Shown here: piece after piece, positions 14,900-58,996 of the stretch
How positions within the stretch are numbered: position 1 is the stretch's first letter
Layout: the number at the start of each line of letters is the position of its first letter
NCBI GenBank assembly: GCA_964384035.1
Contig: CAYLIB010000003.1
Span: forward strand, 36,393-100,392
From: an uncultured Candidatus Saccharibacteria bacterium
GTDB taxonomy: Bacteria; Patescibacteriota; Doudnabacteria; UBA920
Length of the DNA stretch: 64,000 bases
Direction: 5' to 3'
Notes under the pieces: model-generated
The model's database searches: none
What the model was told of the DNA's origin: nothing
The model's input: the letters and a program-made list of their open reading frames with translations, nothing else
Translations under genes and position numbers: made by a program

Positions 14900-14922
14900 A
14901 AAATTAGATTTGTCCTCTAGTT

Positions 14923-14962
14923 AAACTAAAACACCGCATTTTTCAATGCGGTGTTTTAGTTT
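14923..14962. repeat. perfect 18-bp inverted repeat with 4-nt loop (aaactaaaacaccgcatt / aatgcggtgttttagttt)
   Basis: Read directly from the sequence. It lies in the divergent spacer just upstream of the WbaP-like gene, at the left edge of a GC-rich island, and is not followed by a clear T-run. Confidence 0.5.
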
Positions 14963-15416
14963 TGCAAACTCGTAAGCCGAATTCTGTTTCTAAATGATCA
15001 TCTCTCTTATCTTGATATTGCTATCAAGCTCTAGCTGCCTACCAAATTTGGCATTGCACTCTGGTAAGAATTTAGCCGTTTCAACCCTAGTGTTACCACT
15101 AAAGCTTACCCCGTGAAGGGTACTCTAGTCTTTCGACATTGAGCGTCTCTGTTCGCATCTCGTGGATTACTCCAGACGGGCGTTACCCGCTACCATTTTT
15201 CGAAATTGCTTCCAAAATAAGTGTTCGGACTTTCCTCTGCTATGTATCGGCATTGGATTGTGTCCAATAGCCCTAATTTTACAAACTGGCAAAGCCAGAT
15301 TTGTGAAATGGAACATCACAGCGATCATTCGATTTGCTTGTTTATTATACCAGAAATAAACTAAAAGTCAAAATTATGCCATTTATCCCTTATTTGAGAG
15401 ATAAAATATAGTATTT

Positions 15417-15445
15417 ATTGACAAAAATGTTATTTTATGCTATAT
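15417..15445 (+). promoter_or_regulatory. sigma70-like promoter TTGACA-17-TATATT
   Basis: Consensus -35 and a good -10, ~55 nt upstream of the ATG at 15505. An AAAGGAGA RBS precedes the start. Confidence 0.6.
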
Positions 15446-15504
15446 TATAGAAAGCATATTTTTGTGCCCCAAACTTTACTTTCCAAAACTAAAAAGGAGA
15501 CACA

Positions 15505-16251
15505 ATGAAAAAGCAGAACCACAACAATAAACCCGCTCGCTTGACCGATGCCCAGTTCGAGGATGCGATCAGAGGCATCCTCAAAATTTGGTCGCTTATG
15601 CTGGGCAACTTCTGCCCCAACCCAGCGGAACCCGAAAGGAAACTCGCGATCGCGGGTTTCCTACTAAAGGAGAATCATCCGATCGCGGAGAAGGTGAAGC
15701 ATTTCTTCGCTGACGTGAAGTCGGAACAGAACCAAGAGGCTGCTCGAAGGGATGCCCTGGCTGTCAAACAGGCACTGTTGGGCTTGCTGAGGGCATTCTT
15801 GCGCAACCACGTGCGCTTCTTCGACAATGAGCTGGCCGCCGCTTTTGCGGGCGTGAACAACTTTTTGGAGAAGGAGTACGCCAGCGGGTCGGACAAGCTG
15901 TTCGACCTGATCAAGGTGACGAAGTGGGATCCGGCGCTGGCGAAAAGAATCGAGAAACGCCGCGCGGAACTCCAGGAAGGCACGACCAAACTTCAGGACT
16001 TCACAGATGCTGAAGAGTTCTTGACCTTCATCGCCTTGCAAAACCAAACGCTGACCTTTATTCGGAGCGTTTGCAACGAGATGAAACAGATTGCAGGCAA
16101 AAAAGCCGGCAAACTCATCTCGGAGAAGGCCGCACAGAACCGAATGAACCCAGCAACGGTCGGCAAAGAACCGGCGAAGAAAGTGGCGCCTGCCCCGAAG
16201 GCCCCGGCCTTCAATCCTGCACTCGCTGAACTCCTTTCTAGTGTCGTCTAA
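15505..16251 (+). CDS. hypothetical protein (GC-rich island gene, all-alpha, no signal peptide)
   Basis: 248-aa ORF, ~55% GC against a ~35% background. Own promoter, RBS and terminator. The many antisense ORFs in the ORF track here are a GC artefact. Confidence 0.6.
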   Translation: MKKQNHNNKPARLTDAQFEDAIRGILKIWSLMLGNFCPNPAEPERKLAIAGFLLKENHPIAEKVKHFFADVKSEQNQEAARRDALAVKQALLGLLRAFLRNHVRFFDNELAAAFAGVNNFLEKEYASGSDKLFDLIKVTKWDPALAKRIEKRRAELQEGTTKLQDFTDAEEFLTFIALQNQTLTFIRSVCNEMKQIAGKKAGKLISEKAAQNRMNPATVGKEPAKKVAPAPKAPAFNPALAELLSSVV

Positions 16252-16281
16252 TTTTCAATGTTGTGGCTCTGCCACCCAAAC

Positions 16282-16330
16282 AAACAGCCTTTGGAATCTC
16301 TTCCTGAGATTCCAAAGGCTGTTTTCTCTT
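16282..16330. terminator. strong terminator: 19-bp perfect stem, 5-nt loop, T-rich tail
   Basis: aaacagcctttggaatctc-ttcct-gagattccaaaggctgttt followed by tctcttttc. Also abuts the stop of the convergent SIMPL gene. Confidence 0.75.
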
Positions 16331-16339
16331 TTCTAAATT

Positions 16340-17131
16340 CTATTTCACCTCAAAGGTTACGGACATAGATGCAGTTATTTCTTGTTGACCGGGTTCTATG
16401 TTTGGGGAGACGGACTTTTCTAGAGCTGGAGCTGCGCCACCAAACCCGTCTGCTGCGTATGGAATTGGGTAACCACCCAATGAAGATTCTGATACGTTTA
16501 CGACTTTACCTAGAGAAAGACCAGATGCCTTAGCAAGTTCTTTTGCTTTTTCTTTTGCTTTTTCTATAGCTTGCTCCCTTGCTTTCTGACGTAGACCATC
16601 TGGATCTTCAAACGAAAGGGTAACTCCGTTTACTTGATTAGCCCCGTTTGCTGTTACACCGGAAAGAATTTTTCCTAAGTTCTCTTTGTTTTTTCCATTT
16701 ATCTGTTTTACTTCAACAGTTATGGATTGACTTACCTGGTAGCCTGTTACAGTATTTTTACCACCGGAGTTGTCGTAGTTTGGATACATATTGTAGGAGG
16801 ATGTAGAGATGTCCCCTGCTGGTATACCTTGGGATTTTACGAAATCTATTATCTTGTTTGTCTTTTGACTATTTTCATTCTGGGCTAATTCCGTAGTAGC
16901 TGCTTGGGTTAAAACACCAACATTTACAGTAGCTGTGTCGGGTTCGGACTTTACCTTACCCTCTGCTGATACAGTCATTACATTCTTAGGATTTTTATTT
17001 GCCCAGACTTCCTGTACATCGTGAAATTTTTGCGCGATTCCTAAGACAAGGAAAATCGCGAGAAGTATCCCGACGATATTTACAATACCCTTAAAACTAT
17101 CTAAGTTGCTTTTTTGTATTTCTGGTGGCAT
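16340..17131 (-). CDS. SIMPL domain protein (DUF541 / BP26-like)
   Basis: 263 aa. N-terminal TM anchor. Typical SIMPL pattern (VSAEGKV ... ATV ... SSYNMYP ... TGYQVSQSITVEV ... SMSVTFEV). Confidence 0.7.
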   Translation of the reverse strand: MPPEIQKSNLDSFKGIVNIVGILLAIFLVLGIAQKFHDVQEVWANKNPKNVMTVSAEGKVKSEPDTATVNVGVLTQAATTELAQNENSQKTNKIIDFVKSQGIPAGDISTSSYNMYPNYDNSGGKNTVTGYQVSQSITVEVKQINGKNKENLGKILSGVTANGANQVNGVTLSFEDPDGLRQKAREQAIEKAKEKAKELAKASGLSLGKVVNVSESSLGGYPIPYAADGFGGAAPALEKSVSPNIEPGQQEITASMSVTFEVK

Positions 17132-17188
17132 AAATTTTATAATTACTTAATCTCCATTTATCATAACACTATCTTGATTATCATTATC

Positions 17189-17214
17189 AAAAACCACCCA
17201 ATAGGGTGGTTTTT
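17189..17214. terminator. bidirectional terminator hairpin (accaccc/gggtggt)
   Basis: An A-run, a 7-bp GC stem and a T-run, directly downstream of the rpsI stop. Confidence 0.6.
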
Positions 17215-17229
17215 AAAATTTTAAAATGA

Positions 17230-17802
17230 TTACCTCTTCGCCCACTGTGGACTTCTACGTGCTCTCTTCAAACCTGGTTTCTTTCTTTCTTTTCTGCGGT
17301 CGTCTCGGGTTAGGAGGCCGTTTTTCTTCATTAGTTTTCTTACTTCTTCGTTAGCTTTACCTAGAGCTTGGGCTATACCGTGTCTTACTGCTTCTGATTG
17401 GGCGTTTATACCACCGCCACTAATGTTTGCATAGACTTTGAATTCTGATGCTTGACCAATTAGCTTGAAAGGTGAAAGTGCTTTCTCGACTAAATCTTTT
17501 GGAAAATATACTGAAAGTGGTTTCTTGTTTGCTGTATGTTCACCTTTTTCTGCAAAAACCCTTACATTGGCAACTGCTCTCTTTCTTCTACCAGTAGCAT
17601 AAATATATTTACCGGAGGGAATTTCCACAGCCATGAAGACCATATCTGGTTTATCTTCTTCTTGCTTCATAAGCACTGTGTCTTCTACAGTAGTTTCCTC
17701 GACTTTTTTAACAACTCGTGGTTTCTTTGCTGCAGACTTTGGTTCTGGACCAGTTTCTTTTTTTGGCTTTGCAGTTCGCGGTTTTATAGTCTTCTCAGTC
17801 AT
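17230..17802 (-). CDS. rpsI: 30S ribosomal protein S9 with a ~60-aa Lys-rich N-terminal extension
   Basis: 190 aa. Core YIYATGRRKRAVANVRVF ... GGGINAQSEAVRHGIAQAL ... KPGLKRARRSPQWAKR. Confidence 0.93.
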   Translation of the reverse strand: MTEKTIKPRTAKPKKETGPEPKSAAKKPRVVKKVEETTVEDTVLMKQEEDKPDMVFMAVEIPSGKYIYATGRRKRAVANVRVFAEKGEHTANKKPLSVYFPKDLVEKALSPFKLIGQASEFKVYANISGGGINAQSEAVRHGIAQALGKANEEVRKLMKKNGLLTRDDRRKERKKPGLKRARRSPQWAKR

Positions 17803-17805
17803 ATA

Positions 17806-18222
17806 TTATTTATTAATAGGATAGTTACTTACTTCTTGGCCGCGGACTATTTTAAGCCTTGCCATCATAGCTTTTCTGAATTTTACATCGTCAAGCATTT
17901 GCATAACTGCTCTTTTTAATACCTGTTCTGGTCTTGCTTGCATTTCGTCTTTCATACTCTTAACTCTAAGACCACCTAAGTATCCAGAGTGGGTGTAGTA
18001 CTTTTTCTGCTCAAGCTTTCTGCCAGTAACTTTAAGTTTTTCTACATTTGTAGCAACTACAAAGTCACCACCGTCCATATGAGGAGTGAAATCTCTTTTG
18101 TGCTTGCCTCTTAATAAAGTGGCAATTTTAGTAGCTACTCTGCCAAGAGAGTCACTACTAGCATCTATTTGATGCCAGGATCTGCTTACACTTTTTGCAA
18201 TTGTGGTTTTCTGTGACTTCAT
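17806..18222 (-). CDS. rplM: 50S ribosomal protein L13
   Basis: 138 aa. WHQIDASSDSLGRVATKIATLLRGKHK and FVVATNVEKLKVTG motifs. Confidence 0.93.
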   Translation of the reverse strand: MKSQKTTIAKSVSRSWHQIDASSDSLGRVATKIATLLRGKHKRDFTPHMDGGDFVVATNVEKLKVTGRKLEQKKYYTHSGYLGGLRVKSMKDEMQARPEQVLKRAVMQMLDDVKFRKAMMARLKIVRGQEVSNYPINK

Positions 18223-18224
18223 AG

Positions 18225-18569
18225 TTAATCTATTAACTCAACGAGTACTTTAGAATTTCCTGCACTCGGTTTATTCAGCTTAGTAAGGCGCAAGTAGCCG
18301 CCTTTTCTTTCTTTAAATTTAGGACCAAGAACTTCAATAGTTTTAAGAGCAGCGTTTCTAGTGAGCTTTGACAGTAATTCTCTTCGGTTATGAAGGGTAT
18401 CTGTTTTTGCTCTAGTAATTAGCTTCTCTACATAGGGTCTAACAGCTCTAGCATTTGCATAGCTGGTAGTAACCTTTTCGTACAACACAACAGAGGATGC
18501 GAGTGTGCGAAGAAGTTTTCTACGGTGATCCGTACCCTTGCCTATTTTTTTCTTTTTTAAGTGTCTCAT
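18225..18569 (-). CDS. rplQ: 50S ribosomal protein L17
   Basis: 114 aa. MRHLKKKKIGKGTDHRRKLLRTLASSVVLYEKV. Confidence 0.92.
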   Translation of the reverse strand: MRHLKKKKIGKGTDHRRKLLRTLASSVVLYEKVTTSYANARAVRPYVEKLITRAKTDTLHNRRELLSKLTRNAALKTIEVLGPKFKERKGGYLRLTKLNKPSAGNSKVLVELID

Positions 18570-18573
18570 ATAA

Positions 18574-18652
18574 TGAATGGTGAATGACGAATGACGAATG
18601 ACGAATGTTTCTAAAATCTTTATTCGTTATTCTCTATTCTTTATTCGTAATA
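18574..18652. repeat. intergenic element: (GAATGAC)3-4 heptamer array facing an inverted (TTATTCG/T)4 array
   Basis: gaatgacgaatgacgaatgacgaatg ... ttattcgttattctctattctttattcg, between the rpoA stop and the rplQ start. A second copy lies at 60005-60090. Confidence 0.55.
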
Positions 18653-19648
18653 TTACTCTCTTCCGAGAACTGTTAAAATTTCTGTAATTGTCTTTTTACC
18701 TAAGCCTGGAATGTTATTTATATCATCATTTGTAAGAGCTCTTAAAGCTTCTACTGTGTTGATATTATTTTTCATAAGAGCATTTCTTGCTCTTGTAGAA
18801 AGCTGAAGAGTATCAAGATCGCTTTCTACTCCTTCTATTGGTTCAAATGCTACTGCTTCTTCGTTTTCGTCTTCGTCCATATCTGGTGCCACTGGCTGAA
18901 AACTTATTGGTTCTTCAGAACCAGCGCTGAACATCATAGAGAAATGGTCCACTAAAATGTGGGATGAGATGTCCATTGCTTGTTCGCCGGTAATAGTACC
19001 ATTTGTTTCGAGAACTATTTCTAGTTTGTCGAAGTTGGTGATTTGACCTACACGAACATGGCTCACATCGAAGAATACGGACTTAACTGGTGTATAGACA
19101 GCGTCTATAGCTAGTAAACCAGATTCAAGCTTCTCTTCTTCTCTGGCTTCTACTGGAACATACCCTCTACCTTGTTGGACAATAATTTCTGCTTCGAATT
19201 CTGCTGTCTTACTGTCTAATGTGGCTAGAACAAGGTCCGGATTAAGTATTTCTACTTGATCCGACTTTTGTATGTCTGCACCAATAACTTCTCTTTCACC
19301 CTTAGCCTTGATGCTTAATCTTACCGGCTCGCTACTATGACTTTTTACTCTGAGCTGTTTAAGATTAAGAATTATCTGAATTACATCTTCCTTAACGTGA
19401 GGGATCGACGAAAACTCGTGGTCGGCAAATTTTATTTTAACTGCAGTAACCGCAGCGCCTGGCATAGAAGAAAGCAATACTCTTCTAAACGCGTTGCCAA
19501 TAGTTACGCCGTAGCCAGGATAAAGTGGCTCCAGAGTTACTTTGTATTTGTTGTTGCCCAAGGATTCAACTTGAGCTCTGTTTGGTAATGGAATCGCTTC
19601 CATAGTGTTATACCCCCTCACGTCTCCCGCGTGAAGCAGGAAGAACAT
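18653..19648 (-). CDS. rpoA: DNA-directed RNA polymerase subunit alpha
   Basis: 331 aa. N-terminal domain GYGVTIGNAFRRVLLSSMPGAAVTAVKI and a C-terminal HhH domain. Confidence 0.95.
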   Translation of the reverse strand: MFFLLHAGDVRGYNTMEAIPLPNRAQVESLGNNKYKVTLEPLYPGYGVTIGNAFRRVLLSSMPGAAVTAVKIKFADHEFSSIPHVKEDVIQIILNLKQLRVKSHSSEPVRLSIKAKGEREVIGADIQKSDQVEILNPDLVLATLDSKTAEFEAEIIVQQGRGYVPVEAREEEKLESGLLAIDAVYTPVKSVFFDVSHVRVGQITNFDKLEIVLETNGTITGEQAMDISSHILVDHFSMMFSAGSEEPISFQPVAPDMDEDENEEAVAFEPIEGVESDLDTLQLSTRARNALMKNNINTVEALRALTNDDINNIPGLGKKTITEILTVLGRE

Positions 19649-21625: not shown

Positions 21626-23302
21626 TTATCTAGCTATTTCTACCTTGACTTTTGTGGCAAATTTCGGCATAGTTTTTTGCCAATATGGGCTTAAAGTTAC
21701 TTCTATTTTTTCTATGTCTGGTCTTGAAAGTAGTATATCACTAACTTGCTGTTTACTTTTACCAAGTAAATCTTTCTGTACTCCACTTAGATCAATTTGG
21801 GTACTGCTCTTTGCCTCAACATGCACACTTAATACCATTAATCCAGTATCAAAATTTAGATCCTTAGCTTTTACAGTTAGGCTCCCGTCTAAGCTATTAA
21901 TGAGTTTTTGGGTTTCTGGAAGACTTTTGATAATTCTTTCCTCGACTATGCTTGCTATTTGATTTTTACTCACGAGCAATCCTTTTATGGTCGCCTTTAC
22001 TGTAGCTTGAAAACTTGGAGATTCAGTCCCAGAAATTTTATCGCTTTGGAACTCAACTATTTCTGCTGTATATGCTCCATCGACTAACTGCTTCCCTTCG
22101 GATTGAAAGTCTAACCGAAGTTGGTCTACCATTTTTTGCACCAATTGTGTTTGTGCGTTTTTAAAATCCTCATCGGTTATAACTGAGAGGTATCTAGAAG
22201 TGCCACCTAGTATAGCGGTTTGGGTTTTTGCATATAGCACTTGAGGCTGACTACCGAAGACCTGGTTGGTAATTTCGAGTCTAGTACCGGCTGGGATGTT
22301 AAAGTCTTCGCCACCTGAAACTGCAGTCACATCTACATCTGATTTAGAAGAATTTCCTGATTGAATAGATGAAGGTGAGATTGCCTTTATATTATTCTGA
22401 TCTTCTGTAAACTGGTAACTTTTATTTCCTAGTTTAAGGACAGTGGTGCCTGCCCTCAGATTGATCGGCTTGCCAGTGAGGTTATAAATTAAGATCTTTC
22501 CTGTAGATTTAGTACCTACTTCCTTTTTACCAGCACTCTGAAAGTTATCTTGAAGACTAAGGGTTTTGATTATTTTTGTGGCTGGGATGACCATTTTGGA
22601 GGAATCTATCTCAGCAACACCACTACCACTTGTGATTTCTAGGTCTCTTACTACTGTATCGGTCTTTGGGTATACAACCACTTTACCCTCTGGAAGCACA
22701 AAAATACCTATTAGAGCCCCGATAAGTAAAATCGGGAGAAAGAATCCAAGGGTAATTTTCCATGGGCTTTTTTTCTTGAATTCTGAATTATTTATGTGAT
22801 TAGCTTTTGAATTTTTTGCAACAGAACTGGCTCCGGAGTATTTTGTTTCTTTGATCATGACATGAGGCTGTGCAGGGGCTATTTTTGACTGCCTCCTAAT
22901 AGCTACAGTTTCTGTCCTCTGTCTTATTGGCATTCTAATCTCCGGTACTTTCGTTTCTTCTTCTTTTTTCTCATAAACTTCTTTATATGGGTTTGTTCTT
23001 GCGCCTATATCTGAGAGCCCTCTTCTTGTACCTGCTTGTGCGATTGTTTTTAGTGCAAATCCGGCTTCTTTTGCATATACCTGGCCGACTTCATCCATGG
23101 TAAGTATAAAAACAGACTTACCTAAATAATCAGTCTGTTTTTTTAGTAATCTTAAGTTTATTGCATCAGAAAAAAGAAAGCTTCGTTTTGGAAAAACCAA
23201 TACAACCTCTGTTGAATCTGTTCTTGCGATTTTCTGGGTGACAGTTTGAATGTCGTCTTCGATGTTTAGATATATCGTTTTTACCATAGAGTAGTTTTTC
23301 AA
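21626..23302 (-). CDS. hypothetical single-pass membrane protein
   Basis: 558 aa. Cytoplasmic N-domain, a TM helix around residues 185-205 (ITLGFFLPILLIGALIGIFVL), and a large extracytoplasmic domain. No recognisable family. Occupies the position where secY-adk-map usually sit. Confidence 0.6.
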   Translation of the reverse strand: MKNYSMVKTIYLNIEDDIQTVTQKIARTDSTEVVLVFPKRSFLFSDAINLRLLKKQTDYLGKSVFILTMDEVGQVYAKEAGFALKTIAQAGTRRGLSDIGARTNPYKEVYEKKEEETKVPEIRMPIRQRTETVAIRRQSKIAPAQPHVMIKETKYSGASSVAKNSKANHINNSEFKKKSPWKITLGFFLPILLIGALIGIFVLPEGKVVVYPKTDTVVRDLEITSGSGVAEIDSSKMVIPATKIIKTLSLQDNFQSAGKKEVGTKSTGKILIYNLTGKPINLRAGTTVLKLGNKSYQFTEDQNNIKAISPSSIQSGNSSKSDVDVTAVSGGEDFNIPAGTRLEITNQVFGSQPQVLYAKTQTAILGGTSRYLSVITDEDFKNAQTQLVQKMVDQLRLDFQSEGKQLVDGAYTAEIVEFQSDKISGTESPSFQATVKATIKGLLVSKNQIASIVEERIIKSLPETQKLINSLDGSLTVKAKDLNFDTGLMVLSVHVEAKSSTQIDLSGVQKDLLGKSKQQVSDILLSRPDIEKIEVTLSPYWQKTMPKFATKVKVEIAR

Positions 23303-34573: not shown

Positions 34574-34669
34574 ATATTTTATTTGAATTACCAGCTATAT
34601 CCCCTATTTTTTACGGGTTATTGCCGGTAATTCACAATCCCTTTCAACAAAGTCTGTAGGAGGACGATC

Positions 34670-43119: not shown

Positions 43120-44162
43120 GGATTGACCAAGTGGATACCAAGCACCCGATTATCGTCCGAAACCTTCACAAGCGTGAGCTTTGTAGCGCCTTTTCGCTTA
43201 TAACTCATGAATTTCCCGCGACGAAATTCTCTGATCCGCTGCCACCTATTTCCGACTACCATCCCAAAGACGGCTTCGGGTACTCTAATTTCAAGCGTCT
43301 TACCCTTCAGCTTAGGGACGAGGTAAATCCAGGTACTTGATTGAGTCCCAGGAAAAACACCATGGAATTCATAGTCGTTTGGAAGAACGTCATTCGGTAG
43401 GCCATCCTTACCTATATGAACTACCACGTCCGTGTCCTTGAGCCACAGGTCAACATTGGCTTTTAGTTCCTGTTTGGCTTGAAACGCAGCAACTTCAGCT
43501 TGCTTAATCTCTTCTTCGGCCAAGACTTTCTTACACCCAGCTTCAGTAATCTGAAAGTCAGGGCAAATGCGAACTTCGACTGTAGAGAGATAGGTGTATT
43601 TGGGTGTATAACCCGTATACCGATCCACATCCCCCTCAACCTGGTAAGCATTCACGTACTCGAAGAAGAGCTGAAGTTCGATCTTTCCATCTGGGGCTTC
43701 CTCCCACTCGTCTATTATCCGTGTCTCTGCGAGTCGTTCGGCAGCCGCCCTGTGAACATCGTCATCAGGCCACAAAATCTCAGCCTGATTGGGAACAACC
43801 CTCATGCCAGGCAATGCCTCCAATTTCGGTTGAGTCGCAAACCAAACGGTTCCAACTCCTTTACTTCCAAGCCAAACATATTCCCCTGCATACATGTACG
43901 CAAGATGAGTAAGCTTGAAAGTGTTTCCGGTCTCCGGCAAAATCTGAACCATTTCTGGCTCAATCTGCCAGATTGCGGCGAGGAGCTGGACAGCTTCGAG
44001 GCCATTTTTGACCTCCCGCCAGACTTCCTTAAATCCAGCAAAGGGCAAGTCTTCTTGCCAACGGTTAAGTTTTGTGCCCTGAGGAACCTTCATGGAAAGC
44101 CGAAACTTTCCGGAAGAAACCTCAAACAAGGCGCTTCTGTTACTGCTGCTAAATTTCAGCAT
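43113..44162 (-). CDS. hypothetical cytoplasmic protein (GC-rich island gene)
   Basis: 349-aa ORF, ~50% GC. RBS agaggg. No recognisable domain. Confidence 0.55.
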   Translation of the reverse strand: MLKFSSSNRSALFEVSSGKFRLSMKVPQGTKLNRWQEDLPFAGFKEVWREVKNGLEAVQLLAAIWQIEPEMVQILPETGNTFKLTHLAYMYAGEYVWLGSKGVGTVWFATQPKLEALPGMRVVPNQAEILWPDDDVHRAAAERLAETRIIDEWEEAPDGKIELQLFFEYVNAYQVEGDVDRYTGYTPKYTYLSTVEVRICPDFQITEAGCKKVLAEEEIKQAEVAAFQAKQELKANVDLWLKDTDVVVHIGKDGLPNDVLPNDYEFHGVFPGTQSSTWIYLVPKLKGKTLEIRVPEAVFGMVVGNRWQRIREFRRGKFMSYKRKGATKLTLVKVSDDNRVLGIHLVNPD

Positions 44163-47141: not shown

Positions 47142-47170
47142 ATTATACATGAAAACGACCCAAAAGTCAA
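47142..47170 (-). promoter_or_regulatory. sigma70-like promoter TTGACT-17-TATAAT for the DUF11 surface-protein gene
   Basis: Consensus hexamers on the minus strand, ~75 nt upstream of the ATG at 47066. RBS aaaggaac. Confidence 0.6.
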
Positions 47171-47393
47171 GACTAAAACCCGCTTAAATTGAAAATATTA
47201 AATGGCTTGTTTAAGAGATAAAAATCACATGATCTGAAACATTGAAGATTTTGTTTCAGTTTGGATGATTTTTTGTATTTTTTTATGGAGCCGTACGTAG
47301 CAGGGTACGGTGGAGTAAAAAAATGCAAAAAATCGCACAAAATGGAGCAAAATATGCAATGCCGTGATGAGAAAAATAAAACTAAAGAAACAA

Positions 47394-47436
47394 GCGCAGT
47401 CAGAGTGGGATATTGAGTCCCACGGCTGAGCTGCGC
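47394..47436 (-). terminator. terminator of the GC-rich two-gene operon (nested hairpin, T-rich tail on minus strand)
   Basis: Outer stem gcgcagtcag/ctga(g)ctgcgc and inner stem gtggga/tcccac. In minus sense it is followed by ttgtttctttagttttattttt. Confidence 0.55.
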
Positions 47437-47460
47437 TTGAAATGCTGACATGAAGCGAAT

Positions 47461-48687
47461 TTAGGGCCGGCGAACCGGGACGGTTGTCGTGCTGCCACCG
47501 GTTGTCGGGTTAATGGGCGGAGTACCGCCGATGGTTCGACCGATTGGCAGATCGCCGTTTGTCGTACCGCTACCGAGTGGTGACTCGATAGTTCGTATGC
47601 CATCGCGTGGTGCGATTGGCCCACGAACAGGATCGCCGTTGGGAACGGTACGGACACCACCGGATGTGGAGTCTTTCATAGGGACTTGCGGTTTGTCGGG
47701 TCGGCTTGGGATGCCGTACCGACCGATGACTGTTCCGACAGGAACGCCAACCGCGAAGCCGACCCAGAATTCCTTCCAGTGCCAGCCATCCCAGACGATC
47801 TCGACACGGATGTCTTTGCCGGGTTCACAGAACGAGTCCTCGACGTGAGTGAAAGTGACTTTAGACTCCAACATCTTTTGGAAGTTTTTTTCGTCATCCT
47901 TGCTTTTGACGAACCTCTTCTGGATGTCTTCGTCTTTTTTCATTTCCTCCCAGATTGCCCGAATGTAACTTTCAGGCAAACGGTCACTCGCCACCAACAC
48001 TTCGCCCAACTTGAAGGATTTGGATTTCCCGCTTCTTGTTGGCCCAACTAGGTCATTGCGACCCCCTTCGCAAATCGTCTTCGTTGCAGTCTTATGGATT
48101 TCCACTCGACCGCAACCGAAGTCCTTGGTCACGATTTTGTTACCATCTCTGTCAGTGGCTTCTGTGACTTTGGGTTCGTCAAACGGTTTGCATGGAGGAG
48201 GTGTTGGGCATGGTGTCGCGGAGGGAGTCGGAGCGGGTTTTTCGTCCCACTTGATGGCCTCCATGTGGAAGAACCGATTTGCGCAACGCACGATCCGCAC
48301 GATCTTCATAGTGGCCATGTGCATGATCACCAGAGTCGCCGGCTGTTCCGGGCCTTCGGGGGTCAACTTGACCATATCCACGAGAGGCAACTTACCGTAG
48401 ACCCAGTTACCTCGTTTATCTTCGGAGTAACCAAGTACGGTGGGTTTGGTGATTGCGACACAGGCGAAGCCTGCGGGAAGCTCTTTCGAGCCGTCGCAAT
48501 AACCGTAAATTCCGCCTTCGATTGTCGGGAACGATCCGACGGGAATGAACCCGCCGTTCAAGTCCCGGAACGATTTCGGAGCTTTGTCGAGTGGTGTGAA
48601 GTCAACATTTGAGGTCTGCGCCAAAGCGCCGACGACCGAGAGAGTGACCAGAAGGGTTGCGACATAGAGAATTCGATTGAGTTTCAT
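47461..48687 (-). CDS. hypothetical secreted protein, Cys- and Pro/Gly/Thr-rich (GC-rich island gene)
   Basis: 408 aa, ~58-60% GC. Signal peptide (LLVTLSVVGALAQT). RBS aaaggag. C-terminal PTPSATPCPTPPPC and GT-rich low-complexity tail. No sorting signal. Confidence 0.6.
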   Translation of the reverse strand: MKLNRILYVATLLVTLSVVGALAQTSNVDFTPLDKAPKSFRDLNGGFIPVGSFPTIEGGIYGYCDGSKELPAGFACVAITKPTVLGYSEDKRGNWVYGKLPLVDMVKLTPEGPEQPATLVIMHMATMKIVRIVRCANRFFHMEAIKWDEKPAPTPSATPCPTPPPCKPFDEPKVTEATDRDGNKIVTKDFGCGRVEIHKTATKTICEGGRNDLVGPTRSGKSKSFKLGEVLVASDRLPESYIRAIWEEMKKDEDIQKRFVKSKDDEKNFQKMLESKVTFTHVEDSFCEPGKDIRVEIVWDGWHWKEFWVGFAVGVPVGTVIGRYGIPSRPDKPQVPMKDSTSGGVRTVPNGDPVRGPIAPRDGIRTIESPLGSGTTNGDLPIGRTIGGTPPINPTTGGSTTTVPVRRP

Positions 48688-48705
48688 TCGGTGTAATCTC
48701 CTTTG

Positions 48706-49407
48706 CTAGTTGGAATTCGGTGTTTTGATGAGATTGATGGCGCTTTGGACGGCGCCGAGTCTCATCATTTTGTCGTAGTTCAGGACTGGGAGCCATTTCC
48801 CAGCCGACTCGTCGTAAATGTAGGACGAATTGTCGGCAAGGTAGGTCATACCCATGAACTCGACATAATACCCCTGCAAGCCCTTTCCCGGGACCAAGAC
48901 TGTGACTTTCGCCACCACTCGGCTAATCCGGTACCACTTGCTGTTTAGAAAACGGAAAGCGGCAGCTTCGCCGTTGAGAAGTATGTCAGTCGTGCGGTCT
49001 TCCACACGACGACCGAGTATGACTCCACCAACTGCGCCACCGTAACGACCAATGCGCCCAAGTCGGCCAAGCTCGATAATCATCGCATCGATTGCGATAT
49101 TGCCGAGGCCTTGGTTTTCGTAGGCGCGAGACTGGGTTTTACGGCGTATGCGCTCTGCTTCAATCATGTCTTCTTGTGTCGGCTGATTGATTTTCAGCAC
49201 GACCGATTCCCATTCGATCTGCAAGCACTTGGGTGTGAACCCAAGCTTGTTAGTCGGATTGTTGAAGAGGTTTTTGGCCTCTTGAATATCCGACTGCTCC
49301 AAAATTGAGGTGGGTTCGCTACAGGATAGGCCTTTGCTTGCTTCCTGTCCGAAAGAAGTGATTGAGAGAGCTAAGATGATGGCAACGATTATATAAATTC
49401 GCTTCAT
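48706..49407 (-). CDS. hypothetical secreted protein (GC-rich island gene)
   Basis: The ORF track starts at 49461. The internal ATG at 49407 (MKRIYIIVAIILALS...), preceded by ggagga, is the more plausible start and gives a signal peptide. ~52% GC. It sits 18 nt upstream of the next gene, so likely an operon. Confidence 0.55.
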   Translation of the reverse strand: MKRIYIIVAIILALSITSFGQEASKGLSCSEPTSILEQSDIQEAKNLFNNPTNKLGFTPKCLQIEWESVVLKINQPTQEDMIEAERIRRKTQSRAYENQGLGNIAIDAMIIELGRLGRIGRYGGAVGGVILGRRVEDRTTDILLNGEAAAFRFLNSKWYRISRVVAKVTVLVPGKGLQGYYVEFMGMTYLADNSSYIYDESAGKWLPVLNYDKMMRLGAVQSAINLIKTPNSN

Positions 49408-49609: not shown

Positions 49610-50968
49610 TTATTGATAGTCTATTTTGTCTAATGTTCCGAATATAACTTTTCTCTTTGCGGTACCGCCTATTGGCCAACAGGTTCCTAGAGCTACAACT
49701 GAGTCTGCGGTGTTCTTGAATTGTTCTGGATCTTGGGGTGTGTACTCTCCCCTTCTGTTAACTATGTAAGTTAGCTTAACGAGTTTTCCTTGTTTGGTGG
49801 TTACATAAACGTAGAAGGAAGCTTTGTCTGGTACGTCGTTTAAACGGGAAAAGATGGTTTTAAATTTACTGTCGTCCCAAGCGTAACCACTGCTGTGTCC
49901 GGAAATGTAGGAAGTACCTAAGGAGCCGGGTTCTGCTGTGCCAGGGACTCGCATTACTCCAAGTTTTAACGCATTGTCGTTTTCGGCGCTGGTCTTTGGC
50001 CACTGGATTGGTGCGGTAACATTTATAGAAGGGATTTCGATTTTACCTGGAATGTTAAAGTCTATGTCGAGATAGTTCTGTGTGGCTGGGATGTTTAACT
50101 TGTTGTACTTCGGTGTTGCGGATTGGTTTGGGTAAGTTCCAGTTAAGTTTGGTTTAACTTCAGGTTTAATAAAAACTATGTTTGGCTTTACGTAGGAGAT
50201 TCCTGAGTTATCTGTTGGAGTTGCAATAGTATTCACAACATCTACCGGTTCTACTGGGTACCCTTCGCCTCGCAAGTAGTAAGGGTTAGTTATAACTATC
50301 TGTTCTTCTACCGGATAAGATTTTTTCTTGTTTACTGCAACATCTACTTCTATGAACTGTTCGATAAGTTTTTTCTGGTCTTCGGTAAGATTGTTACCGT
50401 TGAGCGGGTTAATACCATCCTGAATATATTCACTATCTGCCTTACCGAGTTTTAGAGTGTCGTAGACTTTTGGATTTAAACCAAGAATATATTTTTGAAA
50501 GCTTGTTAAACCGTTACCAGAAAGGTCCGTGTTCGGATCTAGCACACTTTTGTCGCTTATATCGAAGTAGTACCCGCGCATCCATGTCTCAAACCTTATT
50601 TTTTCGGTCTTATAGAGTGTGTCTAAGTTTGCTTGTTTGCTTACGCTTGCTACTTTAGGCTGAGATTTGAAGATGTTGCTGAATGAAAAACTGGAGAAGT
50701 AAAAGAAGTAAACAAATATACCGATAAAGAATACAGCTACGAAAGGAGCCACGTATTTAACTATTCTTCCGATACTGGATGACTGACTTTGGTTATATGA
50801 ACTAATCTCTTCTTCGATTTGTTCTTCTGTTTCTATGCTTTCTGCAGAATCTTCTGAATGTGTAGCATGGGATGTACTTTCGTGTGCATTTTTTGAAAAT
50901 ACATTCAAAATTTCCGGGCTACCCGGTACAATTTCTGGCTTTGTTATTTTGTCGTCTAATTCGTTCAT
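49610..50968 (-). CDS. sortase-family transpeptidase (N-terminal acidic cytoplasmic tail, one TM, extracytoplasmic catalytic domain)
   Basis: 452 aa. His in YISGHSSG. TLxTC-type Cys in VVALGTCWPIGGTAKR, followed by the conserved Arg. Confidence 0.75.
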   Translation of the reverse strand: MNELDDKITKPEIVPGSPEILNVFSKNAHESTSHATHSEDSAESIETEEQIEEEISSYNQSQSSSIGRIVKYVAPFVAVFFIGIFVYFFYFSSFSFSNIFKSQPKVASVSKQANLDTLYKTEKIRFETWMRGYYFDISDKSVLDPNTDLSGNGLTSFQKYILGLNPKVYDTLKLGKADSEYIQDGINPLNGNNLTEDQKKLIEQFIEVDVAVNKKKSYPVEEQIVITNPYYLRGEGYPVEPVDVVNTIATPTDNSGISYVKPNIVFIKPEVKPNLTGTYPNQSATPKYNKLNIPATQNYLDIDFNIPGKIEIPSINVTAPIQWPKTSAENDNALKLGVMRVPGTAEPGSLGTSYISGHSSGYAWDDSKFKTIFSRLNDVPDKASFYVYVTTKQGKLVKLTYIVNRRGEYTPQDPEQFKNTADSVVALGTCWPIGGTAKRKVIFGTLDKIDYQ

Positions 50969-51163: not shown

Positions 51164-51192
51164 TTGACTTTATGTGTCTCTTATATTATAAT
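51164..51192 (+). promoter_or_regulatory. sigma70-like promoter TTGACT-17-TATAAT
   Basis: Consensus. An ~80-nt leader with the hairpin ccaggt...acctgg. RBS tggagg before the ATG at 51274. Confidence 0.6.
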
Positions 51193-51273
51193 TAGCTCTT
51201 ATTTTCCCAATCTCAATAAACCAGGTTAACGTAAGTTACCTACCTGGCTAAATTCAACTATGGAGGAATTGAA

Positions 51274-52062
51274 ATGAGTTACAAACGATATAAGGGCTTG
51301 TCGTACAATGATTTGTTCGCTGTCATAATGATGAGAGCGTACTTATCTGATGGACTACTCTCGGATGTCTTGCTCACTGGAATCAAGAGATTCGCTAAGG
51401 AATTTGCGGTTGATCAAGTTGGCCTTCCTCTCAATTTCAATGAAATTGTCAAAAAAGACCTCTTTGACAACCGCCTGGTTGCCACACAGACTGCTCTGGC
51501 GCTTATGAATCGGGAGGAAAGCATAGACTTCGAATCTGCCTGTGCTGGTAAATTCGAGGAGCTGATTCAGGAGGCTCTAAGAAAAGTACCTGCAGACGAG
51601 CTAGCAGAGATGGAACCAGCCTTGCGAGCCAGTTTCGATAAGGTCCGTGAGTTGTTGAATATGACGGAAACCGAAATGAAGGCGCTCGGAGTTGATCCGC
51701 TGGATGAAGCCGAGCGTTGGGTAACGACAGTAAAAGGTATTGCCTCGGAAAACGAACAACACCCAGCGTCTGTTGCGTTCAACGACGGCGCACTCAAGGC
51801 TATTGTGACTAAGGCCTACACCAAGGAACAGTTGAGAGATTTGCTAACTGCAATGGTCAAAGTGACCTGTAGCGCAAAATATCTGGTTCAGCTTTGCGTT
51901 ATGCCGACCCTTACTCTGCTCGCAAAAGCCAAAGATAAAACTGACGAAGAAATTGCAAGATACCAAGGAGCTTTCGTTGAGAAAGCTGCGGATCTCAGTC
52001 AGGAAATTCTGGTAACCGCCTTGGGTCAAACCTCACTCATCGTGGATAAGATTTTTGAATAA
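51274..52062 (+). CDS. hypothetical cytoplasmic all-alpha protein (GC-rich island gene)
   Basis: 262-aa ORF, ~47-50% GC. Own promoter and terminator. No recognisable domain. Confidence 0.6.
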   Translation: MSYKRYKGLSYNDLFAVIMMRAYLSDGLLSDVLLTGIKRFAKEFAVDQVGLPLNFNEIVKKDLFDNRLVATQTALALMNREESIDFESACAGKFEELIQEALRKVPADELAEMEPALRASFDKVRELLNMTETEMKALGVDPLDEAERWVTTVKGIASENEQHPASVAFNDGALKAIVTKAYTKEQLRDLLTAMVKVTCSAKYLVQLCVMPTLTLLAKAKDKTDEEIARYQGAFVEKAADLSQEILVTALGQTSLIVDKIFE

Positions 52063-52100
52063 AACGCAAAATTTGCGTTTATTTTTTTTGTTTTTTTCTA
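52061..52100. terminator. bidirectional terminator (acgcaaa/tttgcgt + long T-run)
   Basis: Overlaps the stop codons of both the 51274..52062 gene and the convergent rmlA-like gene. Confidence 0.65.
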
Positions 52101-56614: not shown

Positions 56615-57034
56615 ATGGCTGACCAAAAACAAAGAAAAATTTTAATTGTGGAAGACGATATGGCTATGAGAGATATCGTTATTCACAAACTTCTAGCACA
56701 CGGTTTTGAAGTTAAAGAAGCAGAAGACGGAAGAAGAGGGATAGATTTAGCTATTCAAGAAAAACCAGATTTAATTTTGCTGGACCTTATGCTTCCAGAA
56801 GTAGATGGTTTTAAAGTTTTGGAGACTGTTCGTGGGTCTGATGATAAGTCTGTTAGCAATACTCCGGTAATTATATTGTCGAACCTTTGGAGCAATAAAG
56901 ATATACTTAGGACGAAGGACTTAAAAGTGCAGGCGTATATGGTTAAAGCGTATTTTACCACTGAAGAGATACTTAGCAAGATAAATGAGATACTGGCTGA
57001 AGGGAAGAAGCAGACAGAAGAAAAACCTGCATAG
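56615..57034 (+). CDS. stand-alone response-regulator receiver domain protein (CheY-like)
   Basis: 139 aa. KILIVEDDMAMRDIV ... PDLILLDLMLPEVDG ... conserved Asp/Thr/Lys pattern. No output domain. Confidence 0.8.
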   Translation: MADQKQRKILIVEDDMAMRDIVIHKLLAHGFEVKEAEDGRRGIDLAIQEKPDLILLDLMLPEVDGFKVLETVRGSDDKSVSNTPVIILSNLWSNKDILRTKDLKVQAYMVKAYFTTEEILSKINEILAEGKKQTEEKPA

Positions 57035-57105
57035 CGTTATAGATTTCCAAAAAACACCATTTTCTATGGTGTTTTTTTAATTGAACGCTAATCTATTTAC
57101 CTATC

Positions 57106-57134
57106 TTGACTATTCTAACATAATATGTTATAAA
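57106..57134 (+). promoter_or_regulatory. sigma70-like promoter TTGACT-17-TATAAA
   Basis: A terminator hairpin (aaaaaacaccattttctatggtgttttttt, 57046-57080) precedes it. A ~90-nt structured leader runs to the ATG at 57224. Confidence 0.55.
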
Positions 57135-57223
57135 AATAGGCTCAATAAGTATTTTTTTGGGTTAGAGCTAACCCGACTTGTTGTGCCTGTTAACACAGAA
57201 AACCGACATTCTGGAGGAATGAC

Positions 57224-58189
57224 ATGAAATCTCGTTTTCAGATCGTTTTTTCGGTCGCCTTTTTGGCGATCTTTGCATTCAATTCCCTGGCACTGGCCCA
57301 GCGCAAGGCACCAGCGCCTTCAGCGGCTCCGCCCAAACCGGTCGAAGCACGCAAGCCGACGGTTATCAACTTGCCACCTCCGCCACCACAGAAACCCGCA
57401 CCGACGCCGGCGCCAGTGGTTCAAGAACGCAAGCCGACGGTTATCAACTTGCCACAGGCTACGCCGGCGCCAGTTGTGAAAGCGACTGCGACCCCTCCGC
57501 CTGTGCAATATGGTAACCAGGCAGTGAAAGCGACCCCAACTCCCGCGGCTCCCGTGGCCACACCAAGTGTGCAGTACGGAAACCAAGCGGCGAAACCTTC
57601 GCCAACTATGCAAGCCACTCAGCAAAATGCGACTGGCGTGCAGTACGGTAACAAGCAAGCGACGGTAATTCCTTTGGCGAAGCTGAGTCCGACTGAACTG
57701 GCGAAGCGTGAAGCGCAGGCCAAACAGTCTGGCAAGTACTTTGCAGACCGGAACTCGGCCATCGCGGCGATAAAGGCAAAAGAACCGATTCAGACGACTT
57801 TTGCCACGGAACCCGCCGAGCGACCTTACTGGGCGCCGGAGCAAGATGACCGTGGACGGCAGGTAGTGTTCAGCAACGGACGATATCGTTCTTACGATGG
57901 AAGTCGTTATTACGATTATGATCCGTATGCTGATAGCTATGGCCAATCACGAATCTTCAACCACGGTGGTTACTATGCTCCGGGGGTCGTGTACTATAAT
58001 GACCCGACACCTGGTTACAACTATGCGAATCAACCCGCTGTGGCTTATCCGCAACAGCCGACACAACCGGGGCAGCGGATGGGATTCTTTGGCGCATTCG
58101 CAACGGTCGCAGTGTTCGCAATGATCCTGGCAGCCGCCTGCTTCATTGCTTACTTGTATTTCCGAAGCAAACGTCGTACCAATCCATAA
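57224..58189 (+). CDS. type-I membrane protein with Pro-rich tandem repeats and a Tyr/Gly-rich region (GC-rich island gene)
   Basis: 321 aa, ~58% GC. Signal peptide, then RKPTVINLP and VQYGN(Q/K) repeat units, then YYDYDPYADSYGQ, then a C-terminal TM (FFGAFATVAVFAMILAAACFIAYLYF) with an RSKRR tail. Confidence 0.6.
   Translation: MKSRFQIVFSVAFLAIFAFNSLALAQRKAPAPSAAPPKPVEARKPTVINLPPPPPQKPAPTPAPVVQERKPTVINLPQATPAPVVKATATPPPVQYGNQAVKATPTPAAPVATPSVQYGNQAAKPSPTMQATQQNATGVQYGNKQATVIPLAKLSPTELAKREAQAKQSGKYFADRNSAIAAIKAKEPIQTTFATEPAERPYWAPEQDDRGRQVVFSNGRYRSYDGSRYYDYDPYADSYGQSRIFNHGGYYAPGVVYYNDPTPGYNYANQPAVAYPQQPTQPGQRMGFFGAFATVAVFAMILAAACFIAYLYFRSKRRTNP
57346..57455 (+). repeat. in-frame tandem repeat (~78-bp period) inside the 57224 gene
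   Basis: cgcaagccgacggttatcaacttgccac occurs at ~57350 and ~57428. Confidence 0.6.
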
Positions 58190-58202
58190 CAAGGAGAAAA
58201 CC

Positions 58203-58958
58203 GTGGACGAAAAGCTGACAGTGCAGTTTTGGAAGAGCCTCAAGGCAGGTGAATTGCTCGTCATTTCTGACGAGCGGTCCATTTACCGCGAGTCGGACTT
58301 TGACAAGGCAGAGAAGGCAGCGGGCAGACTGGTTACGGACCGGATTGACGGGAAGATTCCCTTCAAGGTGAAGCAAGTGTTTCATTTGAATGGAAGCGAG
58401 ATCGGAGTTGATTTCGCACTTTTCGTTGAGCTGGAACCGACATCGGAAAGCCAAGCCAAAGCCCTCACTCGCACGTTTCTGTACGTGGAGGGTGTTGGCG
58501 AAAACTTCGATGTAACCTGCTACACGCAGGTGGACACGAACGCCGTACCTTCTGGGTCGCGGAGATTCCTGGCTGAAAACGGACACCCATGGATATTCGA
58601 AGGGTTAGAAGCAAACCCCGGTCAAGACCTTTTGAGCTACCCCTTTGTGAAGAGTGTCCCGATGTCGGCGAACGGTATGCCGATTCCGATGCTCAAAACC
58701 ACGGAAGCGGATAGCAACGCGACTTGCGTTTCCGCCGACCCACCCGTCGAAGGAACTTTTCTGTTCACCTTCGCCATTTACAAGGTTGATCCTGCTGTGA
58801 TGGCGGTGGCGAGAACCGATAGCCCAGAAGGGGCTTTGCTCAACTACAGAGCGTTCTTCGAGTTTGGTGACGCGAACAACGCCGAAGGAGGACTCGTACT
58901 CTTCCTTGAAGGCTCGAACGTGGACGTGAACAGCGTGGCCATGGGCGACGTGTTCTAG
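58203..58958 (+). CDS. hypothetical protein (GC-rich island gene, likely co-transcribed with 57224)
   Basis: The ORF track starts at 58146, inside the upstream gene. A GTG at 58203 preceded by aaggagaaaacc is the more plausible start. ~55% GC. No recognisable domain. Confidence 0.5.
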   Translation: MDEKLTVQFWKSLKAGELLVISDERSIYRESDFDKAEKAAGRLVTDRIDGKIPFKVKQVFHLNGSEIGVDFALFVELEPTSESQAKALTRTFLYVEGVGENFDVTCYTQVDTNAVPSGSRRFLAENGHPWIFEGLEANPGQDLLSYPFVKSVPMSANGMPIPMLKTTEADSNATCVSADPPVEGTFLFTFAIYKVDPAVMAVARTDSPEGALLNYRAFFEFGDANNAEGGLVLFLEGSNVDVNSVAMGDVF

Positions 58959-58961
58959 CTT

Positions 58962-58996
58962 AAAAGCACATAGTATGACTATGTGCTCTTTTTTTA
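58962..58996. terminator. bidirectional terminator (agcacatag-tatga-ctatgtgct + T-run)
   Basis: 9-bp stem. Overlaps the mreB stop on the other strand. Confidence 0.7.

Follow-up and report, generated by a model that had tools for sequence, protein, structure and literature searches.

Genes whose base composition deviates from that of the surrounding genome are routinely taken as products of recent horizontal transfer, and in the episymbionts of the candidate phyla radiation (CPR) it is tempting to name the host as the donor. The 64,000-nucleotide (nt) stretch of an uncultured Candidatus Saccharibacteria genome analyzed here, called the window throughout, raises this question directly: GC-rich open reading frames (ORFs), termed islands below, lie scattered between its low-GC operons, and an earlier note, made from the sequence alone, had read them as recent, possibly recurrent, captures from a high-GC donor, perhaps the host itself. 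Are the islands foreign arrivals, or does their composition belong to the lineage that carries them? We propose, with about an even chance of being right, that they are old, fast-evolving and sometimes swappable lineage-specific orphans residing in fixed slots, and that their GC excess is maintained and does not record a recent import from a high-GC host.

Composition and Codon Usage of the Islands

The window has an overall GC content of 39.5% and carries, as context genes, a ribosomal cluster, rpoA, mur and rml genes, a sortase with a CLIPPER/DUF11 surface protein, mreB, and secA. At third codon positions, the GC content (GC3) of its 52 ordinary coding sequences (CDSs) is 0.318 ± 0.041 with a maximum of 0.411, whereas nine ORFs in seven units range from 0.43 to 0.70 (z 2.7–9.2 versus this background). 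These ORFs are numbered as islands 1 to 9; islands 6/5 and 8/9 form paired units, and the other units are single-gene. Island 1 (15505–16251, + strand) has a GC content of 0.545 and a GC3 of 0.699 (z = 9.2), and the corresponding values are 0.459 and 0.496 for island 2 (34670–35722, +), 0.459 and 0.431 for island 3 (35841–36884, +), 0.483 and 0.503 for island 4 (43113–44162, −), 0.544 and 0.606 for island 5 (47461–48687, −), 0.50 and 0.60 for island 6 (48706–49407, −), 0.464 and 0.487 for island 7 (51274–52062, +), 0.557 and 0.550 for island 8 (57224–58189, +), and 0.53 and 0.65 for island 9 (58203–58958, +). The + strand is thus used by six of the nine islands, compared with 4 of the 52 background genes (p = 3e-4).

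GC3 is high over the full length of each island CDS, and the flanks directly outside drop to a GC content of 0.23–0.40. Codon usage shifts globally in the islands, with TTA falling from 0.30 to 0.05, AGA falling from 0.54 to 0.18, CGG rising from 0.02 to 0.21, and NCG codons rising approximately three-fold. Because G-ending and C-ending codons increase together, this is a general GC shift, unlike translational selection on particular codons. The compositional pattern is therefore real and unusually clean, and the islands do display the deviating composition and codon usage associated with horizontally acquired genes. In this respect the earlier note read the sequence well: its by-eye GC percentages were accurate to about 2 points, the computed GC, GC3 and codon statistics set the nine ORFs apart from the 52 background CDSs, and the objection that it had raised against itself, namely that these statistics might match the rest of the genome, did not apply.

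Persistence of the GC Excess Across Lineages

The oldest of the slots lies downstream of the sortase gene, where islands 6 and 5 form an operon-like pair. With the sortase between islands 6 and 7 as anchor, seven distant relatives (L012, L013, and L094–L098) were retrieved, whose sortases are 39–59% identical (BLASTP). The gene order HU–response regulator–DUF192–rmlBCDA–sortase is fully kept in five of them (L012, L013, and L094–L096); the L095 contig reaches only to the sortase, and rearrangements are found upstream of the sortase gene in L097 and L098. Downstream of the sortase, as far as the contigs reach, come two orphan genes (one in L098), the CLIPPER gene, a further slot, and galE, after which GT2 and S8 protease genes follow in L012, L096, and L098. 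A much closer comparison is provided by a sister species of approximately 90% DNA identity, which was assembled from unrelated runs and is syntenic with the window.

The post-sortase slot is occupied in every lineage examined, and its genes lie above their own locus median GC3 in eight of eight lineages. The excess of the two genes amounts to +0.28 and +0.28 in the window, +0.24 and +0.29 in the sister species, +0.21 and +0.19 in L094, +0.28 and +0.23 in L096, +0.09 and +0.12 in L012, and +0.06 and +0.09 in L013; it is +0.08 in L097, and +0.135 in L098, a 51%-GC genome with a background GC3 of 0.594. At the sortase identities given above, synonymous sites would be saturated, so that a foreign composition acquired once would have been lost in the meantime, and genes drawn from a donor pool of constant composition would not exceed a background of 0.59. 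The earlier note had conceded that orthologues of the same composition at the same loci throughout the lineage would make these genes ancient and lineage-specific; this is what is found for the 47461–49407 unit, for which a recent capture from a high-GC host is contradicted. Since the excess over each genome's own background persists despite saturation, it appears to be a maintained property, without decay at least in this oldest slot, and not a timestamp of recent import.

The occupants themselves diverge rapidly. Islands 5 and 6 are weakly homologous to L012 genes (33% identity, E 1e-21, and 28%, E 5e-4, respectively), and other pairs of post-sortase genes link L094 with L013 and L094 with L096. 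Positional orthologues of island genes are 26–33% identical, compared with 55–87% for neighboring genes, indicating that island genes evolve far faster than their neighbors. The strongest-looking islands thus include genes that sit at the same locus clade-wide and are GC-enriched over every background, and composition alone would mislead screens for horizontal gene transfer (HGT) in these genomes.

Fixed Positions With Changing Occupants

Synteny in the sister species and the relatives bears out the description of the islands as lying between intact operons, and the fixed position of the slots between core genes is seen in the sister and in L012, L013, and L094–L098. At the same position, non-homologous or extremely divergent content is found at the island 2 and island 4 loci and in the post-sortase slot. 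The sister species carries islands 3, 5, 6, 7, 8, and 9 in the same places and with the same GC3; all islands but 2 and 4 have a counterpart there, and islands 2 and 3 were compared at sister level alone.

The island 7 site, between rmlA and the sortase gene, is a bare 135–175 base pairs (bp) in L012, L094, L095, and L096 and holds only a 73-amino-acid (aa) ORF in L013. Island 7 is thus an insertion in the lineage of the window and its sister, placed antisense to the operon with its own promoter. The island 4 slot, between the CLIPPER gene and galE, is empty in L094 and L096, is filled by members of the island 4 family in L012, which has two copies, and in L013 (26–27% identity, E 1e-27 and 4e-20), and holds an unrelated 209-aa gene in the sister. 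The two tandem L012 copies, of 355 and 357 aa, occupy positions 16751–18962 of that contig; L012 also has an extra 338-aa orphan beside rmlB (5251–6267, GC3 0.44 versus 0.38) without counterpart in the window.

The island 1 slot, which extends from the SIMPL gene to rnpB and a sugar transferase gene, was compared through a metagenome scan anchored on rpoA. It is empty in L030, L031, and L032, and in L015 and L034 it contains unrelated convergent ORFs with a GC3 of 0.50 versus 0.315 and 0.59 versus about 0.45, respectively. The RNase P RNA gene rnpB (14957–15285, − strand) flanks this slot and is not part of the island; it is a full-length match to RF00010 (E 1e-25) of the bacterial class A type, with a score of 83 bits that lies below the Rfam gathering score of 100. 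It fills an otherwise empty 605-bp gap upstream of island 1, where relatives have a spacer of approximately 480 bp.

The islands 8/9 pair is present in the sister, and in L012, L013, and L094–L096 HU instead adjoins the response regulator. Within the window, positions 56615–60001 constitute a synteny breakpoint at which island 8, island 9, and mreB stand in place of this adjacency. Another gene that differs between the two close genomes encodes a 122-aa protein of the 23S-rRNA-intervening-sequence family (41451–41819, − strand; PF05635, E 2e-22), which is present in the window and absent from the sister.

The idea of discrete inserted or replaceable units therefore holds for islands 1 and 7, whose sites are empty in relatives, and for the island 2 and 4 loci, where the sister has unrelated genes. 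The expectation that the insertion points would be empty in related genomes is borne out for island 1 (three relatives) and island 7 (four of five), but islands 4, 5, and 6 have positional orthologues.

Encoded Proteins and the Search for a Donor

Four of the nine island proteins, those of islands 3, 5, 6, and 8, carry an N-terminal signal peptide and are predicted to be secreted or membrane-anchored, the same number as in the earlier note, and the remaining five are predicted to be cytoplasmic. Island 1 encodes a 248-aa cytoplasmic orphan, located between rnpB and the SIMPL gene and convergent with the latter. Orphans of 350, 349, 262, and 251 aa are encoded by islands 2, 4 (in the CLIPPER–galE slot), 7 (antisense between rmlA and the sortase gene), and 9, respectively. 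The secreted island 6 protein comprises 233 aa, and its partner from island 5 (408 aa) consists of a signal peptide, a Pro-rich linker, a transmembrane segment, and a tail, a layout that recurs in distant positional counterparts. The 321-aa island 8 product is a repeat protein rich in Pro, with a signal peptide and a C-terminal transmembrane segment.

Searches of Pfam, PHROGs, and PADLOC gave nothing above noise for the nine proteins save a weak PHROG match of island 3, and sequence searches of the PDB were negative for seven of them (islands 4 and 8 lay outside this search), with island 3 reaching only E-values above 0.1; the absence of a recognizable domain that had been noted by eye is thereby confirmed. 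The secreted 347-aa product of island 3 has no Pfam match, but it weakly matches PHROG 4067 (E 0.0012) and aligns with phiKZ gp144 (3bkh, E ~0.5) over an E-S...WFQ motif that includes the catalytic Glu, a weak but consistent lead suggesting that it is possibly a phage-type lytic transglycosylase. AlphaFold models of island 3 (from a single sequence) and island 4 (AlphaFold2, three-sequence alignment) had mean predicted local distance difference test scores of 42.1 and 47.6, too poor for a fold search. Paralogy among the islands was rejected, since none was found when the nine proteins were compared with each other.

Searches of large protein collections covered islands 1, 4, and 9. A word-indexed search of 5.8 billion clusters returned a single homologue of island 1 (P0020, 64% identity) and none of island 9 beyond its own cluster, and an exhaustive HMMER search of 1.84 billion representatives left three real members in the island 4 family. 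The islands searched thus appear to be confined to a narrow clade of Saccharibacteria; these searches gave clade members only and no homologue from a donor lineage outside it, so that the best-hit taxonomy by which a donor was to be recognized yielded none. Neither 50,697 phage records nor 72,556 plasmid records gave a tblastn match to the nine-protein concatenate, which argues against a phage or plasmid origin, and IMG/VR scans were negative for islands 2, 3, 7, and 8.

These results bear on the reading from which the question arose, namely that the genes were taken up recently, or repeatedly, from a high-GC donor outside the phylum, such as an actinobacterial host, and were partly ameliorated, with promoters either acquired or already in place. 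The global codon shift, with NCG and CGG codons raised three- to ten-fold as foreign DNA would show, the sharp compositional borders, and the empty sites of islands 1 and 7 in distant relatives all fit such a capture, and a two-state model permits islands 1 and 6 to have had a GC3 of about 0.86 when window and sister split. Nevertheless, we regard it as unlikely: islands 1, 4, and 9 lack any non-Saccharibacteria homologue among 5.8e9 or 1.84e9 proteins, none of the nine was matched in phages or plasmids, islands 4, 5, and 6 are represented by positional orthologues across the clade, and the post-sortase slot is GC-enriched in all eight lineages despite saturation, even in a 51%-GC genome. Actinobacterial hosts are typically 65–72% GC, and the islands, at 46–56%, fall well below this range. 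The clade-restricted families and the post-sortase slot that is enriched in every lineage leave the proposed recent capture from a high-GC host unsupported. Saccharibacteria-like relatives in the rpoA-anchored scan span 30–64% GC, indicating that higher-GC gene pools exist inside the phylum.

Expression Signals and Selection on Transcripts

The islands had been described as each carrying a near-consensus TTGAC[AT]-17-TATAAT promoter, a Shine-Dalgarno sequence, and a long GC-rich terminator. Shine-Dalgarno sequences are indeed found at the units, but a promoter of this type lies upstream of only four of the seven units (islands 1, 2, 7, and 8), all on the + strand, and none precedes islands 3, 4, and 6/5. 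An ordinary gene, that of the CLIPPER/DUF11 protein, is preceded by an equally good promoter, and promoter-like sites in the window overall are no more numerous than in shuffled sequence. Likewise, strong long terminator hairpins close five of the seven units (islands 1, 2, 4, 5, and 9; folding z −3.5 to −9.8), but folding shows the terminators of islands 3 and 7 to be modest. Hairpins in the 5' untranslated region (5'-UTR) occur at islands 2, 6/5, 7, and 8.

Island 1 is preceded by the promoter TTGACA-17-TATATT (15418–15446, + strand), which is approximately 95% conserved at the orthologous locus of L008, and ends in a bidirectional terminator shared with the SIMPL gene, with an 18-bp stem (16284–16322) inside an 88-nt region that folds at −38.6 kcal/mol (z −9.8). 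At island 2, the promoter TTGACT-17-TATAAT (34545–34573, + strand) and a 5'-UTR hairpin (34585–34633, + strand) belong to a resident expression platform (34545–34633), and the hairpin is kept in the sister genome with compensatory changes; this stem-loop may be an mRNA stabilizer or a regulatory element belonging to the slot. The island 5 terminator is a long imperfect hairpin (47391–47439, − strand) within an 81-nt region of −30.5 kcal/mol (z −6.1). Between it and the promoter of the CLIPPER gene (47142–47170) lies a 92-aa ORF (47173–47451, − strand) that is probably not a gene, being uncalled in the sister genome and without family match. Island 7 is an autonomous unit (51164–52080, + strand) composed of the promoter TTGACT-17-TATAAT (51164–51192), a 5' hairpin (51221–51247), the CDS, and a weak bidirectional terminator at its 3' end (52062–52080). 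The islands 8/9 unit (57106–58987, + strand) comprises the promoter TTGACT-17-TATAAA (57106–57134), a 5' hairpin (57159–57174), both CDSs, and the 10-bp terminator of island 9 (58965–58987, + strand), which closes it.

Such hairpins invite an explanation through mRNA selection, according to which GC-rich CDSs together with 5' stem-loops and 3' hairpins would yield stable, nuclease-resistant transcripts for host-interaction proteins, selection holding GC3 high. The uniform elevation of GC3 along each CDS up to its borders, the hairpins and terminators listed above, the compensatory changes in the island 2 hairpin, and the enrichment relative to background in every lineage are all consistent with this. 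Yet GC3 stays at background level in genes presumed to be highly expressed, among them those for ribosomal proteins, the excess in the same slot is small in L012, L013, and L097, and rare codons such as CGG (2% of background Arg) would be costly. We therefore consider this explanation improbable, to about the same degree as capture from a high-GC donor.

Probable Exchange of Slot Contents by Recombination

The exchange of slot contents can be followed between the window and its sister. At the island 2 locus, their alignment spans the promoter and the 5'-UTR hairpin, stops just before the ribosome-binding site (RBS), and resumes past the terminator; between the same flanks, the sister (L009) carries an unrelated 195-aa CDS (9235–9933, GC3 0.495). 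The swapped unit (34649–35773, + strand) thus comprises the RBS, the CDS, and an 11-bp terminator (35749–35773), and the promoter is resident. The notion that each cassette brings its own host-style promoter fails at this locus, where the promoter belongs to the locus and not to the cassette. At the island 4 locus, homology is lost immediately ahead of the RBS and immediately ahead of a palindromic terminator module, GACTAGTAAATCGCGTACGTACGCGTTTTGCTAGTC (43083–43118, − strand). A near-copy of this 36-nt module (shared form GACTAGTAAATyGCGTACGTACGCGwTTTrCTAGTC) is located in L009 at ~9897–9935, on the 3' side of the unrelated cassette that occupies the island 2 locus, and the sister's own copy at the island 4 locus has a different loop. 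The module GCGTACGTACGC is present once in the window.

Mosaic patterns extend into the genes. Codons 1–222 of island 1 are 52–78% identical in nucleotide sequence to the orthologue and show heavy synonymous change, whereas codons 223–248 show 0 of 25 synonymous differences and, with the downstream flank, are approximately 100% identical. In islands 5 and 7, blocks of 65–87% identity to the sister alternate with blocks of 93–100%, and housekeeping genes are likewise mosaic, down to the 100-nt scale: in the sortase gene (49610–50968), 100% and ~86% identity to L004 alternate about every 100 nt. Across the region, identity between window and sister varies in blocks from 77 to 99%, and short-tract recombination between the two lineages is pervasive. 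A supposed third island 6 allele in strain L006 turned out to be a difference in start-codon call only, L006 being identical to L004.

The homology breaks at the RBS and after the terminator, the conserved flanks, and the intragenic mosaic blocks are consistent with exchange through the flanks. Experiments have shown natural transformation of Saccharibacteria, with the DNA integrated by homologous recombination (PMC10633639), and most HGT inferred for Patescibacteria runs between Patescibacteria (PMC12455944); for these reasons, homologous exchange through conserved flanks would be the best-supported mechanism.

By contrast, a self-mobile cassette family, integron-like or site-specific, with its own terminator or attachment hairpin and inserting downstream of resident promoters, seems very improbable. 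The unit swapped at island 2, a promoterless RBS and CDS with a 3' hairpin behind a resident promoter, would suit such a family, as would the palindromic module common to the 3' end of island 4 and the sister's island 2-locus cassette; this recurrence at two loci is the part of the earlier suggestion of a mobile cassette family with its own terminators that stands. No integrase, transposase, or recombinase is encoded in the 64-kb window, however, and no direct repeats or border motif shared across slots were found there. The islands have no tRNA-type target, although island 1 does adjoin rnpB. Moreover, the module occurs only once in the window, its copy at the island 4 locus sits in the conserved flank outside the swapped part, the terminators of the other cassettes are unrelated, and the intragenic mosaic breakpoints point to homologous rather than site-specific exchange.

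Genuine Genes of a Low-GC Genome

An assembly or binning artefact, with GC-rich fragments of another organism spliced into a low-GC contig, is suggested by the compositional contrast alone and is effectively refuted, because two Joint Genome Institute (JGI) assemblies and one Logan assembly share identical junctions, all islands but 2 and 4 are syntenic in the ~90%-identical sister from other runs, low-GC promoters, RBSs, and terminators directly adjoin each CDS, and the ORFs are under purifying selection. The junctions compared are those of island 1 with the SIMPL gene, and the chimerism that the earlier note had wished to see excluded thus receives no support. NCBI and Logan have records of all nine island proteins, and JGI has records of eight; the JGI record of island 9 is a variant of 99.6% identity. 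The ratio of the nonsynonymous substitution rate to the synonymous one (dN/dS) between window and sister is 0.08–0.27 for islands 3 and 5–9 (the island 3 orthologue being 91% identical) and 0.29 for the island 1 orthologue, which has a GC3 of 0.698. These ratios indicate purifying selection on real protein-coding ORFs. A scan of genome contigs returned the sister species and nothing else. In this low-GC genome of a member of the Saccharibacteria (CPR/Patescibacteria), the GC-rich ORFs are real accessory genes that code for proteins.

A Proposed Maintenance of the GC Excess and Its Weighing

According to the explanation that we favor, a few fixed gaps between conserved operons, recognizable clade-wide, would hold the GC-rich ORFs. 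Their occupants would be clade-restricted orphans that may be lost or replaced by unrelated genes in some lineages, and swaps would run through the conserved flanks by homologous recombination after natural transformation. Units antisense to the local operon would come with a sigma-70-type promoter of their own. In the island 2 slot, exchange would involve only the RBS, CDS, and terminator and leave the promoter and 5'-UTR hairpin in place. As the maintaining process, we infer a GC-favoring fixation bias tied to high recombination and turnover, resembling biased gene conversion, and repeated exchange inside the phylum may add to the excess. The direction of the excess, its relation to each background, its persistence, the joint rise of G- and C-ending codons, and the visible recombination would fit such a bias. 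Recombining bacterial genes have higher GC3, and a GC-favoring fixation bias has been proposed for bacteria (PMC4450053). That a gene-specific process of this kind, whether GC-biased fixation or mRNA selection, keeps orphan host-interface and accessory genes of this clade 6–38 GC3 points above background is a tentative proposal, on which we would not stake much.

Several observations weigh against this explanation. The indel gene at 41451–41819 is low in GC (0.33), so not every indel gene is GC-rich, and the island 4 orthologues in L012 and L013 show almost no GC excess (+0.02 and +0.04), meaning that the enrichment is not uniform across lineages or slots. A housekeeping segment (38831–40675, GC3 0.255) is 77–83% identical to the sister and is a recombination mosaic without GC gain. 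Reported recombination-associated GC3 differences in bacteria are modest, and the excess here reaches +0.38. At sister level, the relationship between GC3 and protein divergence is not significant (rho = −0.38, p = 0.13). Under the two-state model, the sister comparison fits neutral decay from a GC-richer ancestor, whose GC3 would be about 0.86 in the case of islands 1 and 6, 0.69 for island 5, 0.67 for island 8, and 0.52 for island 7. Among the comparisons made, islands 1, 2, 7, 8, and 9 have no orthologue deeper than the sister species, and these five may be partly ameliorated imports. Third-position differences between GC and AT are symmetric (37/37, 42/45, 48/48, and 16/16; pairwise and unpolarized); the argument that this symmetry proves stationarity was dropped, as parallel decay from a GC-richer ancestor in the two-state model gives the same pattern at sister depth.

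If the explanation is correct, GC-richness would be a heritable, maintained mark of flexible, fast-evolving genes and not a trace of foreign origin, reversing the usual rule that accessory genes are AT-rich. A maintained excess would also mean that the GC content of reduced, naturally competent genomes is subject to a force so far unrecognized. Composition could then serve as a simple guide to host-interaction genes in uncultured CPR bacteria, flagging candidates among the orphans that dominate CPR genomes.

Other Features of the Window

Heptamer arrays (GAATGAC, then repeats of CGTTATT) form imperfect inverted repeats in the gap between rpoA and rplQ (18570–18646) and upstream of mreB (59997–60087). 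A 131-aa ORF on the + strand (4664–5059) has a weak TIR_2 match (E 4e-4, below cutoff), and an unannotated 558-aa protein adjoining the ribosomal cluster (21626–23302, − strand) has a weak Baseplate_J-like match (E 4e-4).

Comparison With Known Systems

In the Lawrence-Ochman framework, atypical genes are horizontally acquired and undergo amelioration. The islands resemble such genes in their deviant GC and GC3, global codon shift, sharp borders, and absence from some relatives. Unlike them, they come without donor homologues or mobility genes that could be found, and the post-sortase deviation persists in eight deeply diverged lineages and scales with the background, as amelioration would not predict.

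With genes under GC-biased gene conversion (PMC4450053), the islands share a GC3 that is raised more than total GC and lies above background, an increase in G- and C-ending codons, intragenic recombination mosaics, and an effect relative to background; they differ in the size of the GC3 excess (+0.06 to +0.38) and in the recombining housekeeping neighbors, which are unenriched. One locus resembles an integron cassette system in that the ORF exchanged there lacks a promoter, has a palindromic element on its 3' side, and lies behind a resident promoter. However, the window encodes no recombinase, neither IntI with attI and Pc nor a cassette array is present, and in place of an attC element at each cassette 3' end there are ordinary intrinsic terminators of differing sequence.

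Phage morons are autonomous promoter–gene–terminator units that deviate in composition and have inserted between conserved genes. Islands 1 and 7 resemble them: each consists of one gene with a near-consensus promoter and a terminator of its own, placed between genes that are adjacent in relatives and often antisense to them. However, neither a prophage context nor a PHROG or phage-genome match accompanies these two islands.

Flexible genomic islands or islets, of the replacement or additive type, are known at conserved loci of marine bacteria and archaea. The slots described here agree with them in their fixed sites between core genes, non-homologous or divergent occupants, many of which are envelope or surface proteins, and, probably, recombination through the flanks. 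They differ in holding one or two genes instead of tens of kilobases, in occupants that are orphans without glycosyltransferase-type annotation, and in being GC-richer than the core, where AT-richer or similar composition is usual. The best description of the slots is thus as relatives of flexible genomic islets that include moron-like units, with a compositional deviation reversed relative to the usual pattern.

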